Source of the DNA: a virus
Lineage: Duplodnaviria > Caudoviricetes
Length of the DNA stretch: 64,000 nt
Virus record (IMG/VR): IMGVR_UViG_3300046678_000278
Coordinates: 1 to 64,000 of that record
Strand: one strand, 5' to 3'
Shown here in pieces: positions 34,671-46,157 of the stretch. Below the pieces are notes generated by a model. The model saw nothing but the letters and a program-made list of their open reading frames with translations. It had not been told where the DNA came from and searched no databases. Numbering within the stretch: the stretch's first letter is position 1; the number at the start of each line of letters is the position of its first letter. The translations under genes and the position numbers were made by a program.

Positions 34671-35069
34671 ATGCAAGAAGATGATTTTCTTGAGTTTTCA
34701 TACAAGAAACCATTGAGGGATGAAACGATCTTCCCTCAATGGTATGAAAACACTTATAAAAAAACTCCCATAAGACGGATGGTAAATGATGTTATAGCTC
34801 CAAGGTTAGAATCCTTATCTGACTTGGATTTGTCGATAAGGACTACTAATATTTTAGAGAATGATGGCATTAAGACCGTAAAACAACTTATCGGCTATAC
34901 TATTGATGAGTTATTTGAAATTCGTAATTTTGGAGAGACTTCACTAAGGGAAATCAGAAAGAAGTTAGCAGATAATGGTTTGTTATTAGTGGGTGATAGT
35001 GTACCTGACGACAGATTCAGATTTGAAGACGAGCGATTTCTATCCGCCGAACGATTTGGATTGGACTAA
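34671..35069 (+). CDS. RNA polymerase alpha-CTD domain protein with YKKP-type N-terminal tag
   Basis: LSDLDLSIRTTNILENDGIKTVKQLI...IRNFGETSLREIRKKL...GL. Confidence 0.85.
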   Translation: MQEDDFLEFSYKKPLRDETIFPQWYENTYKKTPIRRMVNDVIAPRLESLSDLDLSIRTTNILENDGIKTVKQLIGYTIDELFEIRNFGETSLREIRKKLADNGLLLVGDSVPDDRFRFEDERFLSAERFGLD

Positions 35070-40201: not shown

Positions 40202-42313
40202 ATGACCGTTAAAACAAGCCGTCGTTTTGAAGAACTTTCCAAGCAGTTTGATCGTGAAAAGTATCAGAAACTCACCGAGAAGATGAGCTTTCCACAATAC
40301 TTGGATCGTGTATTTGATCGTCCAAGATTGGCCTATAGTGCCTATCAAAGACTTTATAGTATGATTATTTCTGCTGGAACCTATAATATTGAGCGATATC
40401 GCAAAACCGTTACGAAGTACAAGTTCTTCAACGACCCAGAGATTCCAATCTTTGGTCTAGAAGATACTTTAGGAAATCTAGTCAAACACGTCAAAGGTGC
40501 TGCAAGCTGGCACGGAACAGAGAAGCGTATTCTATTGCTTCACGGACCAGTAGGCTCGTCCAAGTCTACCATCTGCCGTCTTCTAAAGCGTGGTCTAGAA
40601 CGATATAGTCAAACAGATGATGGTGCAATTTACACCTACACCTGGACAAATCTTGGTGAAATCAAGAACGACCGTGGAGAAGTCTTGTTCCCAGCGCTTG
40701 ACATTAAGGATGAATGCAAGTGTCCAATGAACGATGATCCATTGAAGTTAATCCCAAGCTATATGCGTAAAGAGATTCAAGACCGTTTGAATCAAATCAA
40801 CGAAGAGGGTAGCACAACCCCAGAAATGAAAAGCACCATTTACCAGATTCGTTTAGGTGGTGAACTAAACCCACAATGCGACTTCTACATGACAGAGTTG
40901 CTAAAACGTTATAATGGCGACTGGGGTAAGGTTGTAGAAAACCATATCGAAGTTCGTAGAATCGTCTTGAGTGAATCCAAGCGTGTTGGTATCGGTACTT
41001 TCCAACCAAAAGACCCGAAGAATCAAGATGCAACAGAACTCACAGGTGATATCAACTACACCAAGTTGGCTCACTATGGCGTTGACTCCGATCCAAGAGC
41101 GTTTGGTTTCGACGGTGAATTTGAAGTAGCCAACCGTGGCTTCATCGAGTTCATTGAAGTTCTCAAATTGGAAAAAGAGTTCTTGTATGACTTGCTAGGC
41201 GTTTGCCAAGAACGTCAATTCAAACCAAAGAAATTTCCACAAATCGACGTTGATATGGTCATCGTCGGCCACACCAACAATCCTGAGTTCGTCAAGTTAC
41301 AGCAAGACGTAACAATGGAAGCTCTTCGTGATAGAACAGTTCGTGTTGACGTTCCTTACTTGCTACGTTGGACTGACGAGCTTAAAGTTTTGGAACAAGA
41401 TTACGGCAAGGAAAGAGTTAAGAACATCCACATTGCTCCGCATACCTTGGAAATCGCTGCATTGTGGGCAATTTTGACACGCCTCAAGGACGGCAAGGAC
41501 AACGTAAGTCTTGTCGATAAGGCAAAACTTTATGACGGTCGAAGTATGCCAGGATGGACAGAAGATCGTGTAAAGGAATTGCGTGACAAGTATGCTGATG
41601 AAGGCATGTCCCGTGGTGTATCCGCCCGTTACGTCCAGAACAAGATTGCAAACGCACTTGTAAGCAATCCTGGTTACGTCAACATGTTCATGGTCCTCAA
41701 CGAAATCAAGGAAGGCTTAGGCACATTCGCCCTAATCGTTGATGAAAATGATCGTCAACACTACGACAACTGCATAGAGTTGGTTAAGAAGGAACTAGAC
41801 GATATCTTGAAAAAGGAAGTTCAACGAGCCTTGGTTGCTGATGAGAACGCAATCACCCGTTTGTACACCAACTACATCGACAACGTTGTAGCGCACGTTG
41901 AAAAGACAAAGATTACCGACCCATTCACAGGCGCTGAGATGGAACCAGATGAACGCTTGATGAGAGCAATCGAAGAGAAAGCCGATATCGGCGATCAATA
42001 CGCAGACGATTTCCGTCGCCAGATTGCAACTTACATTGGTACTCAACACATGAAGGGCAAGGAAGTTCGTTGGGACAGCAATCCTAAGTTGGCAAAGGCT
42101 TTGGAAAAGAAGCTCTTTGAAGACACCAAGGACACAATCAAGTTGTCTGCTCTAAGCAAGGGCGCAACTGTAGGTGACAAAGACCTTCAAGAGAAGATCG
42201 ACGCCGTTAAGACACGAATGATTCGCAACTACGGCTACAACGAAAACAGTGCTACAGACGTACTAAACTACGTTGCAAGTATCTTCGCCCGTGGCGAAAC
42301 CTCTGATAACTAA
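40202..42313 (+). CDS. prkA: PrkA/YeaG-family AAA+ protein
   Basis: LLHGPVGSSKS Walker A, GIGTFQP.DPKNQD.TELTG, DPRAF.FDGEF..ANRG..EF.E..K, EALRDR, G.SARY, YGYN..SA.DVL. Confidence 0.95.
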   Translation: MTVKTSRRFEELSKQFDREKYQKLTEKMSFPQYLDRVFDRPRLAYSAYQRLYSMIISAGTYNIERYRKTVTKYKFFNDPEIPIFGLEDTLGNLVKHVKGAASWHGTEKRILLLHGPVGSSKSTICRLLKRGLERYSQTDDGAIYTYTWTNLGEIKNDRGEVLFPALDIKDECKCPMNDDPLKLIPSYMRKEIQDRLNQINEEGSTTPEMKSTIYQIRLGGELNPQCDFYMTELLKRYNGDWGKVVENHIEVRRIVLSESKRVGIGTFQPKDPKNQDATELTGDINYTKLAHYGVDSDPRAFGFDGEFEVANRGFIEFIEVLKLEKEFLYDLLGVCQERQFKPKKFPQIDVDMVIVGHTNNPEFVKLQQDVTMEALRDRTVRVDVPYLLRWTDELKVLEQDYGKERVKNIHIAPHTLEIAALWAILTRLKDGKDNVSLVDKAKLYDGRSMPGWTEDRVKELRDKYADEGMSRGVSARYVQNKIANALVSNPGYVNMFMVLNEIKEGLGTFALIVDENDRQHYDNCIELVKKELDDILKKEVQRALVADENAITRLYTNYIDNVVAHVEKTKITDPFTGAEMEPDERLMRAIEEKADIGDQYADDFRRQIATYIGTQHMKGKEVRWDSNPKLAKALEKKLFEDTKDTIKLSALSKGATVGDKDLQEKIDAVKTRMIRNYGYNENSATDVLNYVASIFARGETSDN

Positions 42314-42340
42314 GAATAATATTTCATATTAATAATACAA

Positions 42341-42363
42341 GAAGGGGGGATTTTCCCCCCTTC
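42341..42363 (+). terminator. GC-rich hairpin after prkA
   Basis: gaagggggga-ttt-tccccccttc. Confidence 0.7.
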
Positions 42364-42380
42364 TATTTACGGGAGATTTT

Positions 42381-42632
42381 ATGGAGATGGAATGCTTAGA
42401 ACTGACTTATAAAAAGCCTCAACAACCAAGATCATTAAATGGTTATTACTATGGTTATGATAATTGGGATTGGGAAGTCACTAAAACAAATCTAGGAACA
42501 TTCAGAGAAGAACCCAAGCCACCTAAAGTTGCTTGGTCTAGGGAAATGGCTAGAGAGTTTGGAGTAGAATATTATGGAAGTAGTAACCTTGACGTACAAA
42601 AAGCCAAATTGCAAAAAGACAGTAACGCTTGA
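42381..42632 (+). CDS. YKKP-tag small protein 1
   Basis: MEMECLELTYKKP; GGGAG SD. Confidence 0.6.
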   Translation: MEMECLELTYKKPQQPRSLNGYYYGYDNWDWEVTKTNLGTFREEPKPPKVAWSREMAREFGVEYYGSSNLDVQKAKLQKDSNA

Positions 42633-42735
42633 TGGATATGCAAGAATTAGAATACCACTAATAAGAAGATTGCAACCACAGAGCATGATTCAAGTGCCAT
42701 TGGTAGCAAAGCCGTTTCCTCACCTTATAGCATAG
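42574..42735 (+). CDS. YKKP-tag small protein 2, 53 aa (not in the ORF track)
   Basis: GGAG SD at 42561; MEVVTLTYKKPNCKKTVTLDGYARIRIPLIRRLQPQSMIQVPLVAKPFPHLIA*. Confidence 0.65.
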   Translation: MEVVTLTYKKPNCKKTVTLDGYARIRIPLIRRLQPQSMIQVPLVAKPFPHLIA

Positions 42736-42745
42736 GAAAATTAAT

Positions 42746-42973
42746 ATGGAACTTCTAGACTTTGATTACCGAAAACCGACTAGGTTTCAAAGATATGTAG
42801 CCCGCAATTTAGAGCTTGTTAAAAGACAAGAAGAAGAAAAGTTGGCAAAGTTTAATGAGCGAACACGGTCAGTAATAGAACAGATGAAGAAATTATATGG
42901 ATATAGTACGGAATCAGCACATGATGTATTAAGTCATGTTCATAAATCATACAAAGAAAACATACAGGGGTAA
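42746..42973 (+). CDS. YKKP-tag small protein 3 carrying a PrkA C-terminus-like segment
   Basis: MELLDFDYRKP...MKKLYGYSTESAHDVLSHV; AGGA SD. Confidence 0.7.
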   Translation: MELLDFDYRKPTRFQRYVARNLELVKRQEEEKLAKFNERTRSVIEQMKKLYGYSTESAHDVLSHVHKSYKENIQG

Positions 42974-42976
42974 AAT

Positions 42977-44212
42977 ATGCCACACAATATAAAAGAAGAT
43001 CACAAAGAGTTCAGAGATGTAGTAGGCGGAAAGGTTAGAGACGAACTCAAGAAGTTTATAAGAACAGGCAAGATATTCAGACAGCGTGGTAAAAATGGTA
43101 AAGTTGGTGTTACTATTCCACGTATTGATTTACCTCATATTGTTTTCGGCAAGCCAAATGAAGGTGTAGGTCGTGGTCCTGGTGGTCCTGGTGATATTAT
43201 CGGTAAAGACCCAGATAAAGGCAAAGACGGAACAGGTGCAGATGGCGATCATGCAGAAGGTATTGTTGTTCAAGTAGACCTAGAATACATTCTCAAACTA
43301 TTGAAGGATGAGCTAGAACTTCCTGACCTTCTACCAAAAGCAAGTCAAACTTTTGAAGACGAGAAAACTGTCTATAACGGTATTTCTAAAGTTGGTCCAA
43401 ATGCACTTCTACACAAACGAAGAACGTTAAGAGAAACTATGAAGCGTGTTTCTGCTGCTGGCGGACTTGATAAAACCGCAGTGGTTCCTGGTTTCAATCA
43501 GCCAGTAAGATTGCTTCTTCCAAATAACGATGATAGACGATATCGCCAGTATAATATTGTTAAGCGACCAATTAGCAATGCTGTAATATTCTACATGCGT
43601 GATGGTTCTGGTTCTATGGACCCATTTAAGTGTGATATTGTCAGTGATGTTTGCTGGTGGTTAGACTTGTGGATTCGTACATTTTATAAAAAGACGGAAT
43701 CATGTTATATTTGGCACGATACCGAAGCTAAGGAAGTATCGCAAGAGAATTTCTATAACTTGAGATTCGGTGGTGGTACACGTTGTTCATCGTCCTTGAG
43801 GTTAATGAAAAAGTTAATTCAGCCAAAGAGCAAGTATGATCCTTCCAAGTGGAATATTTATGCTTTCTATTTTGGTGATGGTGAAAACGAACAGAACGAC
43901 AATCCAAATTTCAGTAAGTTATTAAAGAATGATCTTGGACCAAAGAAGGTTAACTTGTTTGGTTTAACACAGGTTCTAGCGCATGGCTATGATGGAACAT
44001 TGAAGCACCATGTTGATAAGCAGCTTGAAGGTGGAAAATTGTCTGCTGAACACACCAGAACTACTGCAATCGACCGTCCAGAAGGCGCAAGTTGGGATTA
44101 TTATCAAGACCCAGCAAATCGTGATGAAGCTGTTAAGAAGGCATTGAAAGATTTGCTTGGAAAGAATGTCAAGGCTGGTCGTAGCACGGTTAAGATCGAG
44201 GAAATAGCATGA
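42977..44212 (+). CDS. yeaH: YeaH/YhbH (DUF444) vWA-domain protein
   Basis: IPRIDLP..VFG, DDRRYR, AVIFYMRDGSGSM (MIDAS), GGT..SS, WNIY.F...DGEN. Confidence 0.9.
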   Translation: MPHNIKEDHKEFRDVVGGKVRDELKKFIRTGKIFRQRGKNGKVGVTIPRIDLPHIVFGKPNEGVGRGPGGPGDIIGKDPDKGKDGTGADGDHAEGIVVQVDLEYILKLLKDELELPDLLPKASQTFEDEKTVYNGISKVGPNALLHKRRTLRETMKRVSAAGGLDKTAVVPGFNQPVRLLLPNNDDRRYRQYNIVKRPISNAVIFYMRDGSGSMDPFKCDIVSDVCWWLDLWIRTFYKKTESCYIWHDTEAKEVSQENFYNLRFGGGTRCSSSLRLMKKLIQPKSKYDPSKWNIYAFYFGDGENEQNDNPNFSKLLKNDLGPKKVNLFGLTQVLAHGYDGTLKHHVDKQLEGGKLSAEHTRTTAIDRPEGASWDYYQDPANRDEAVKKALKDLLGKNVKAGRSTVKIEEIA

Positions 44213-44574
44213 ACTCTAACGATGTATTCAAACTCCTAAAGACTGGCGTTAAGTTTAAACGTCATATGGAGTGTGTTGAAGCTGGTTATGGTTGCAAGCT
44301 AGGCCAAAACTATACCCAAGAAGGTGTTGTTTATAAACCCGCCAGATGGGTTAAAAGGCAATATGACAATCCGCCAAGATACAAAGAGTTAATTGCGGAA
44401 GTGCCTTATGTTGACAGGGATGGAGTAACTAAAAAGGGTTATCTTTGTATTAGGTCTAGTCATCTTGATAAAAGTGATATTGAACCATTAGAGAATGGGT
44501 TTAAAGTTGTTGGAAAACCAGACCCAAACTTTAATATGGGAGTTTGGAACGAAACTTACATATTAGAAGAATAA
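44209..44574 (+). CDS. Hypothetical protein between yeaH and spoVR
   Basis: 121 aa; ATGA overlap with yeaH. Confidence 0.55.
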   Translation: MNSNDVFKLLKTGVKFKRHMECVEAGYGCKLGQNYTQEGVVYKPARWVKRQYDNPPRYKELIAEVPYVDRDGVTKKGYLCIRSSHLDKSDIEPLENGFKVVGKPDPNFNMGVWNETYILEE

Positions 44575-44597: not shown

Positions 44598-46157
44598 ATG
44601 GCTCAGAGCTTAATGCAGACGCCAGAATTGCTTAAAGGAAACAATACTATACCCGGCGTAAAGATTCCTGATGAAATTCTCAAGGAAATCCCTGGTATTT
44701 TTAAGGCTTGTAGGGATTGGGGATTGGATTTTTATCCAACTGTAGTAGAGTTTCTAGACTATGACGGAATTTCAGAGGTTGCTGCTTATGGTGGTTTCCC
44801 TGTAAGATTCCCTCACTGGTCTTGGGGTGAACAATATGAAGAACTGTCCCGTGGATATGAGTTTGGAATGCATCGTATCTATGAAATGGTTATTAATACA
44901 AATCCATGTTATATCTACTGCTTGGATTCTAACACTTGGGTTGACCACGTAACAGTTATTGCTCACGCTACAGGTCATAATGACTTCTTTAAGAATAACA
45001 TTTTCTTCTCTCAGACAAGCCAGAACATGATGAATGAATTGGCTAACCACGGAACTCGTATCCGCAAGTACATAGCGGAATGGGGTAAGGAAGATGTCGG
45101 TAAATTTATTGATAAGGTTATGTCTGTTGAAACCCTTCTAGACCCAGCTAAGGCATGGTTGAAGAGAAGACAGAAAGAGCCAATTCCAGAGATTCGCCGT
45201 CAGTATAATCATCCAAGGCGTTTGAAGGTCGAAAAGGGTCACGAACACATGGAAGAATGGATTAACACTAAGGATTATATTGATGCTGAAAAGAAAAGGA
45301 TTCGTGAAGAAGAGTTGAAGAAGAGCATTGGATTATTCCAAGGTGTTGATAAAGATATTTTTGGTTTCTTGAAAGATAATGCTCCAATGAAACCGTGGCA
45401 AGAAGACATTATTAGTATGTTGTATGAGGAATCAATGTATTTTGCTCCTCAAGGACAGACTAAGATGCTTAATGAGGGATGGGCGTCTAAGGTTGATAGT
45501 GAAATGATGGCCCGGCACGGATTAGCTAAGGATGGCGGTATTGTTGAATATTCAGCACACAAGGCTGGTGTTCTTGGTGGTAAAGAATCCATGAATCCAT
45601 ATAAGATGGGTTACTTGCTTTTAGAAGATATTGAGGAAAGATGGAACAAGGGAAAATTCGGCAATGAATACGATGATTGCGAAGATTTCCGTGAGAAGTT
45701 GAATTGGGATAAAAAGCTAGGATTAGGACATGACAAAATTTTTGAAGTTCGCAAGTATTATGATGACGTAACTGCTATTAGTGAATTTTTCACTCAAGAA
45801 TTTTGTGATAAGTATGAGTTCTTTATTTGGAGAAGATTCCCAGACGGAACTTATAAGATCATGGAAAGAGATGCTAAGAAGATTAAGCATATGCTATTAC
45901 AGCAAAAAGTTAATCGTGGCTTACCTACTATTAAATTAGTAGAACCAAACTACAAGAACCGTCGTGTGTTTTTAATGGAACACCAATGGGACGGAAGAAC
46001 TTTGCATCCAACCCAAACCAGTGAAACTATGAAGGCGCTAAGTTATATCTGGAAAGGTCCATGTGCCATCTTGACTAAAAACAAGGATAACAAGCAGATT
46101 ATGTACTACTGTGAAGATGCTAATGCAAAGGTCGAAGTTGGAGAACCAGCCATCTAA
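44598..46157 (+). CDS. spoVR: SpoVR/YcgB family protein
   Basis: GFPVRFPHWSWG, IYEMVIN..PC, AH..GHNDFFKNN, YFAPQGQTKMLNEGWAS, NPYKMG. Confidence 0.95.
   Translation: MAQSLMQTPELLKGNNTIPGVKIPDEILKEIPGIFKACRDWGLDFYPTVVEFLDYDGISEVAAYGGFPVRFPHWSWGEQYEELSRGYEFGMHRIYEMVINTNPCYIYCLDSNTWVDHVTVIAHATGHNDFFKNNIFFSQTSQNMMNELANHGTRIRKYIAEWGKEDVGKFIDKVMSVETLLDPAKAWLKRRQKEPIPEIRRQYNHPRRLKVEKGHEHMEEWINTKDYIDAEKKRIREEELKKSIGLFQGVDKDIFGFLKDNAPMKPWQEDIISMLYEESMYFAPQGQTKMLNEGWASKVDSEMMARHGLAKDGGIVEYSAHKAGVLGGKESMNPYKMGYLLLEDIEERWNKGKFGNEYDDCEDFREKLNWDKKLGLGHDKIFEVRKYYDDVTAISEFFTQEFCDKYEFFIWRRFPDGTYKIMERDAKKIKHMLLQQKVNRGLPTIKLVEPNYKNRRVFLMEHQWDGRTLHPTQTSETMKALSYIWKGPCAILTKNKDNKQIMYYCEDANAKVEVGEPAI

Follow-up and report, generated by a model that had tools for sequence, protein, structure and literature searches.

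The analysed DNA, referred to as the window, is a stretch of 64,000 nucleotides at the start of a viral contig of 105.7 kb, whose completeness, estimated at about 21% by CheckV, implies a jumbo phage. The same DNA is also present in many soil and rhizosphere metagenomes; no RNA run is listed for the locus. In the region under study, a Zn-ribbon gene, prkA, a GC-rich hairpin, ORF83, a 53-aa ORF, a 75-aa ORF, yeaH, ORF121 and spoVR follow one another, the identities of PrkA, YeaH (DUF444) and SpoVR being confirmed by Pfam. In PrkA the C-terminal domain is also recognized (PrkA_C, E 2.6e-71), and the best PDB match of the protein is 9xip, a 'serine protein kinase' (E 2.5e-199), a solved structure for which no paper was found in the literature. 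The elements relevant to the analysis are reported below, together with the evidence for each; L093 denotes a related soil-phage locus, detected in a metagenome scan with YeaH.

40202..42313, plus strand: prkA, 703 aa (Pfam AAA_PrkA, E 4.7e-74)
42340..42364, plus strand: GC-rich hairpin, terminator- or attenuator-like, directly after the prkA stop (scan)
42381..42632, plus strand: ORF83, starting with the leader MEMECLELTYKKP (positive in-frame codon score)
42574..42735, plus strand: 53-aa gene, with leader MEVVTLTYKKP (GGAG upstream; orthologue in L093)
42734..42739, plus strand: Shine-Dalgarno sequence of the mini-protein gene, AGGAAA, which shares nucleotides with the stop of the 53-aa gene (direct reading)
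42746..42973, plus strand: mini-protein gene, 75 aa, ATG start (ORF reading, codon statistics, orthologue in L093)
42977..44212, plus strand: yeaH (DUF444, vWA-type; Pfam DUF444, E 9.3e-66)
44598-46157: spoVR (Pfam)

The segment 42746-42973 is a true gene, coding for a micro-protein of 75 residues. An earlier note had described it as an intact ORF, preceded by its own Shine-Dalgarno sequence and ending 3 nt before yeaH, and direct reading bore out each of these points: the TAA stop occupies 42971-42973 and the ATG of yeaH is found at 42977. The codon score is +0.12 in frame, against -0.93 and -0.96 in other frames, and GC1 exceeds GC3, the pattern of real genes. The ribosome-binding site of yeaH, again by direct reading, sits within the last codons of the mini-protein gene. 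The two genes are in the same frame, with only TAA AAT between them (42971-42979). A fusion of mini-protein and YeaH by stop-codon read-through was considered and rejected, since in L093 the two frames differ and the stop is double; the frame match, found in the window but not in L093, is probably a coincidence.

The product had been described in the earlier note as a duplicate of the C-terminal helices of the adjacent PrkA, and this similarity was evaluated at several levels. The ungapped alignment of 28 residues against PrkA 663-691, with 12 identities, was reproduced, and BLASTP assigns an E value of 2e-4 to the comparison between the two proteins. The alignment score was reached by 4 of 2000 shuffled sequences when the whole PrkA was the target, and by none of 2000 against its last 60 residues. 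A tail HMM, built from 56 distinct phage PrkA tails out of 80 phage prkA loci collected, assigns 19.6 bits to the mini-protein, while the best of 5000 shuffles scored 8.0. Among the 872 six-frame ORFs of the 105.7-kb contig, the mini-protein is the sole match to the tail HMM besides PrkA, the next best ORF scoring 4.9 bits. When the mini-protein was used as query against 11,538 ORFs of phage loci, the top 25 matches were all PrkA. Comparison by hhalign with 32 PrkA tails gave a probability of 90% (E 1.5e-6) for the window protein and, for a profile combining it with its L093 orthologue, a probability of 98% against PrkA tails (E 8e-14). The similarity is real, and the objection named in the earlier note, a lack of significance against shuffled controls, does not apply.

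The earlier note also proposed a search with a HMM of the PrkA C-terminal domain, whose outcome depends on the model used. The full Pfam model PF06798 (PrkA_C; gathering threshold 25 bits) gave no match at E<=1 on the window protein, which the custom tail HMM does detect. The L093 orthologue scores 48.3 bits with the tail HMM (E 4.6e-17) and 23.6 bits with PF06798, just under the gathering threshold, so that membership of the Pfam family by this threshold fails; its match covers only positions 222-255 of the 255 of the profile (E 4.7e-5). Neither the whole domain, of about 255 residues, nor the AAA+ part of PrkA is present. Compared with PF06798, and with the same domain of PrkA/YeaG in 9xip, the mini-protein shares a helix, a G-Y-N/S turn and a second helix, with the core YGY..SA.DVL..V, and holds about 30 of the 255 domain positions; it has no AAA+ or kinase-like body and no IFARGD, while its helix 1 is longer and its N-terminal leader is new.

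The turn and the second helix (Y-G-Y-S-x-x-S-A-x-D-V-L-x-x-V) descend from a PrkA C-terminal hairpin. At the DNA level, only 37 of 90 nucleotides are identical to the adjacent prkA, and 8 of the 12 identical residues are specified by different codons, which indicates that the motif has been retained at the protein level. The window copy keeps the core YGY..SA.DVL..V, without most of the conserved surface residues of PrkA helix 1 and without the terminal IFARGD. The residues kept are mainly those expected to hold the hairpin together, so that preservation of the surface by which PrkA contacts its partners is not proved by the sequence alone; retention of conserved, relative to variable, PrkA columns is not significantly preferential in the window protein (p 0.13-0.25).

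Structural models were obtained with AlphaFold2 for both proteins, and the segments to be compared are the following.

42746..42781, plus strand: leader, mini-protein residues 1-12, MELLDFDYRKPT (no secondary structure in the model, pLDDT about 60)
42854..42943, plus strand: PrkA-tail-like segment, mini-protein residues 37-66 (end of helix 1, turn G52-Y53-S54, helix 2)
42179..42289, plus strand: PrkA terminal hairpin, residues 660-696 (modelled with a 49-sequence alignment)

The mini-protein, modelled from its single sequence with a pLDDT of 86.7, is predicted to consist of an unstructured stretch (residues 1-12), a helix (13-51), the turn G52-Y53-S54 and a second helix (55-73). In the PrkA model, a linker of low confidence (654-657) is followed by a helix (660-677), the turn G678-Y679-N680 and a helix (681-696). 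The predicted layout of helix, G-Y-(S/N) turn and helix is identical in the two models, and the turns correspond to each other in the sequence alignment. The PrkA tail is highly conserved, both in the 56 phage tails and in 9xip, where the hairpin forms the very C-terminus. Searches with the mini-protein returned no match in the ESM Atlas and only chance-level matches among PDB sequences; Foldseek found nothing at E<=0.001 for its model, as expected of a helical hairpin.

Conservation could be evaluated by comparison with L093, whose YeaH is 94% identical to that of the window phage. Its yeaH is preceded by an orthologue of the 53-aa gene and then by a 76-aa ORF (L093:197-427), which reads ...RIREVKDKLIDKYGYNEQSAQDVLEYVS... 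and ends 13 nt before yeaH. Over 34 residues, the 76-aa product shares 53% identity with the consensus of PrkA tails, and it keeps much more of PrkA helix 1 than the window copy does. The two mini-proteins are 34% identical, a similarity reached by none of 3000 shuffles. Between the two phages, yeaH shows a dS of about 1.5, i.e. saturated, with a dN/dS of 0.03; for the mini-protein gene dN is 0.58, non-synonymous change being about 15 times faster than in yeaH, and the ORF is open in both. A run of 75 random codons would remain open with a probability of 0.0035. Since the frame is open in both phages despite saturation of synonymous sites, the gene has been maintained, in diverged form, at its position in at least one related phage, and does not behave as a decaying vestige; a frameshift or neutral evolution in relatives, named in the earlier note as evidence that would speak against it, is not what the intact L093 orthologue displays.

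The distribution of the family is narrow. Only two sequenced lineages are known to have it; a third is presumably represented by a diverged relative, seen in contigs of other soil runs, which conserves the flanks and in which 42691-42965 is substituted by 294 nt less than 80% alike. Six metagenome contigs encode an identical protein, and their DNA is essentially identical too. A word-index search of 5.8 billion proteins, of near and longer lengths, returned the mini-protein itself only, and an exhaustive phmmer search of 1.84 billion representatives only itself and a repetitive coiled-coil protein. By tblastn on 50,697 phage records, the window protein gave chance-level matches only and the L093 copy retrieved only a PrkA tail; nothing was found when the two-sequence alignment was compared with viral contigs. 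Similarly, no small ORF matching the tail HMM was found in 81 other phage prkA loci.

Both closer and more distant relatives bear the prkA, yeaH and spoVR trio without the mini-protein. The insertion is absent in L013 and L011, where PrkA is 79-84% identical, in L094, where YeaH is 82% identical, and in L012; in these four loci the post-prkA hairpin is followed by a spacer of 100-226 nt only. A different small ORF is found at the same position in L092. The YeaH relatives P0003-P0010 show 76-97% identity. In the 80 phage loci, prkA and yeaH are separated by as little as 16 nt and as much as 2.7 kb. The absence in relatives, together with the single PrkA found at each locus, points to an innovation specific to this lineage, the prkA-yeaH junction being a hot spot for gain and loss. 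The hairpin which follows prkA occupies the same place in L013, L011 and L012, with a sequence that differs among the four phages; this suggests a conserved terminator or attenuator between prkA and yeaH-spoVR.

The reading favoured here, to which a probability of about one half is assigned, is that the mini-protein is a free mimic of the PrkA tail, which tunes or blocks the PrkA-YeaH-SpoVR machine. The protein would be produced together with YeaH and translated just ahead of it, as the 3 nt between its stop codon and the yeaH start lead one to infer, and would display a free copy of the PrkA tail. This copy may occupy the docking surface of the tethered tail, either on a neighbouring PrkA protomer, on the PrkA body or on YeaH; a hairpin attached through a low-confidence linker, as in the PrkA model, is a supporting context. 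By occupancy or by substitution at the docking site, it would tune the PrkA-YeaH-SpoVR system, of the phage or of the host, or block it, at the level of assembly or activity. The leader would act as a separate short peptide element, probably directing or docking the protein. The mini-protein can reasonably be regarded as a putative dominant-negative or competitive regulator of PrkA, as suggested in the earlier note.

The nature of the presumed partners may be related to better known systems. NorQ and CbbQ are MoxR ATPases, which work with vWA partners. The AAA+ part of PrkA is structurally nearest to NorQ, including NorQ-NorD vWA complexes, and to CbbQ (Z about 12), which is consistent with PrkA and YeaH forming a MoxR-AAA+/vWA pair, in which YeaH would be the vWA-type partner. 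As to the mini-protein, eukaryotic microProteins, such as LITTLE ZIPPER in plants and Id in animals, consist of a single interaction module from a larger protein and can titrate the partners of their parent. Like them, the mini-protein is small, is derived from a larger protein, holds a single module and has no catalytic parts. MicroProteins are eukaryotic derivatives of transcription factors, whose dominant-negative action has been demonstrated; the mini-protein, in contrast, is phage-encoded, comes from the tail of an AAA+ machine and lies in the operon of its parent, its action being putative.

The N-terminus led to a different possibility. The earlier note had observed that it differs from PrkA; this is so, and the leader is in addition common to three other small proteins of the contig, which makes it a putative second functional element of the mini-protein. 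Its motif is M-E-x-x-x-[LF]-x-Y-[KR]-K-P, in the version MELLDFDYRKP in the mini-protein. The six frames of the 105.7-kb contig were scanned with the regular expression M-[EQ]-x(3-8)-[LF]-x-Y-[KR]-K-P: the leader is found on four real ORFs only, all on the plus strand and within the first 14 residues, and every Y[KR]KP on real plus-strand ORFs of the contig is N-terminal. Besides the mini-protein gene, ORF83 and the 53-aa gene, which are clustered between the post-prkA hairpin and yeaH, the set includes one more distant ORF.

34671..35069, plus strand: 132-aa leader protein, MQEDDFLEFSYKKP followed by an RNA polymerase alpha-CTD (Pfam RNA_pol_A_CTD)

The four leaders differ synonymously in codons. 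One leader carried by different payloads, with synonymous codon differences, is a protein-level element; the mini-protein fits the wider family definition M-[EDQ]-x(3-8)-[LFV]-x-Y-[KR]-K-P, in which conservation is seen at the protein and not at the DNA level. In the 132-aa protein, which is a paralogue of the mini-protein by its leader only, the RNA_pol_A_CTD domain spans residues 48-100 (Pfam E 2.6e-17), and the protein is likely a mimic or decoy of the host alpha-CTD. At least two of the leader payloads are, therefore, modules copied from larger proteins. The 53-aa ORF is a real gene, read in a different frame from ORF83, whose 3' end it overlaps by 59 nt; it has its own GGAG and an orthologue in L093 (L093:37-207; 42% identity, blastp E 2e-8); the pair shares MExxTLTYKKP and IRIPLIRR, the L093 leader being MEIITLTYKKP. 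No homologue of ORF83 was found. The possibility that the 53-aa and 83-aa leader proteins contain capsid-protein fragments was considered, and is unsupported within the contig, which represents about 21% of the genome.

These data raise the possibility, rated as rather unlikely, that the leader sends borrowed modules to one destination, either the virion, for injection, or a hub protein of phage or host. The PrkA-tail module would then act on the host PrkA/YeaG, or as a handle, and not on the phage PrkA. The occurrence of the leader on just four ORFs in the whole contig, encoded by synonymously differing codons, its fusion to a bona fide RNA_pol_A_CTD, its disorder in the model and the retention of MEIITLTYKKP in the 53-aa orthologue of L093 all argue for it. 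On the other hand, the leader of the L093 mini-protein, MDVINVKYKKV, is only loosely similar (170 of 3000 shuffles reach the similarity of the N-terminal parts alone), a search of five related phage records with a leader profile gave nothing convincing, no known targeting signal matches, and the other two payloads have no match within the contig. A whole family of proteins made of a leader and a borrowed module (alpha-CTD, PrkA tail and the two other payloads), acting as decoys or adaptors and all deployed alike, is rated as possible, though rather unlikely; if it existed, its members, for example packaged and injected or docked to a hub, would take over host transcription and starvation-proteolysis machinery. 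A partial precedent is offered by the internal proteins of phage T4, where a capsid-targeting N-terminal leader is common to several small proteins. In both phages, a short N-terminal peptide recurs on small proteins that are otherwise unrelated to one another; the leader sequence here is unrelated to that of T4, no protease site is evident, and packaging is conjectural.

A second alternative arises from the clamp-loader small subunit gp62 of T4-type phages (PHROG 225), where a similar hairpin, Y-G-Y-S-x-x-K-A-x-x-x-L, follows a lysine-rich stretch; the gp62 of a cyanophage contains ...LVKQFYGYSTDKARDAL... The hairpin could be a generic module, present in several families, and the function of the mini-protein could be unrelated to PrkA. 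Both mini-proteins match PHROG 225 (E 0.0036 and 0.016); the window protein scores 75 against the gp62 of S-WAM1, more than against PrkA and never reached in 2000 shuffles; and hhalign aligns the mini-protein pair to gp62 with a probability of 77% (E 2e-5) over 45 columns, including the K-rich stretch. The hhalign probabilities nevertheless favour PrkA tails: the pair has 98% with PrkA tails and 77% with gp62, and the window protein alone 90% and 20%. Moreover, gp62 and PrkA-tail profiles are barely alike (probability 3%), the L093 copy shows the 53% identity to the PrkA tail consensus reported above, and in both lineages the gene lies inside the prkA-yeaH operon. Membership of the gp62 family failed, since only 24-46 columns align, with a probability of 20-30% for single sequences; gp62 is also larger (130-190 aa) and adjoins gp44 and regA, while the mini-protein gene sits in the prkA operon. 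This alternative is thus considered improbable, and the likeness to gp62 would reflect, as far as profiles can tell, a recurring small hairpin motif and not the origin of the gene.

In the gp62 proteins of T4-type phages collected (L099-L106), the sequence K-K-K-R-[YF]-x-K-W-x-K is conserved and followed by the hairpin [YF]-[YG]-x-S-x-x-K-A. This stretch resembles KKVKWKKWKK...YGYNEQSA of the L093 mini-protein.

It is very unlikely that the ORF is a non-functional relic, open by chance, of the 3' end of a prkA that was duplicated or replaced, or of a second paralogue since lost. In favour of a relic are the short length and strong divergence of the copy, the loss of its terminal IFARGD, the GC3 of prkA (0.47, against 0.27-0.38 in its neighbours), which is compatible with gene replacement, and the junction with yeaH, which is the gain and loss hot spot described above. 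Start codon, Shine-Dalgarno sequence and motif are nevertheless intact in two lineages across saturated synonymous divergence, the codon pattern is frame-specific, and in the ancestral layout of the clade prkA is followed by hairpin and spacer, its end not abutting yeaH. The earlier note had offered, in particular, a remnant of the second prkA paralogue that some bacterial operons possess; such a remnant would have lost its open frame, and the 81 phage prkA loci contain exactly one PrkA-like ORF each. The relic hypothesis is largely refuted already, and that part of the first reading is not supported; the homology to the PrkA tail and the maintenance of the gene were upheld.

Finally, an ORF serving only to bring ribosomes to the yeaH start, with an irrelevant peptide, would fit the 3 nt between stop and ATG, the yeaH ribosome-binding site lying inside the ORF and the gap of 13 nt in L093, but is hardly credible, as the PrkA-tail motif and the hairpin layout are kept while synonymous sites are saturated, and most relatives express yeaH without any such ORF.

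To our knowledge, few bacterial stress modules of unexplained mechanism are as widespread as PrkA/YeaG-YeaH-YcgB(SpoVR). Jumbo phages commonly encode the trio, and these phage copies are annotated and unstudied. In E. coli, YeaG (YeaG/SpdA), a PrkA homologue, is required for starvation-induced bulk proteolysis (PMC13684143). A naturally selected, free-standing copy of the PrkA hairpin singles out this hairpin as a functional interaction element, and the mini-protein may serve as a ready-made reagent for probing the PrkA-YeaH-SpoVR starvation module. It is also a clear case of a prokaryotic virus that has turned part of an adjacent gene into a micro-protein, and the shared leader hints at a wider strategy for the deployment of borrowed modules.

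Some additional features of the operon were observed. Between yeaH and spoVR lies ORF121 (44209-44574), which has a 4-nt overlap with the yeaH stop and good coding statistics; no homologue was found in 81 phage loci, Pfam or PHROGs, and it is another lineage-specific insertion in the operon. At 0.47, the GC3 of prkA exceeds that of yeaH, spoVR and the small ORFs (0.27-0.38), the GC of the contig being 0.36, and in the comparison with L013, a phage apparently higher in GC, PrkA is 83-84% identical and YeaH only 75%: prkA may have been replaced relatively recently. In one metagenome contig (L007), an in-frame deletion of 72 nt, at 43226-43297, falls within the Gly/Asp-rich linker of yeaH.
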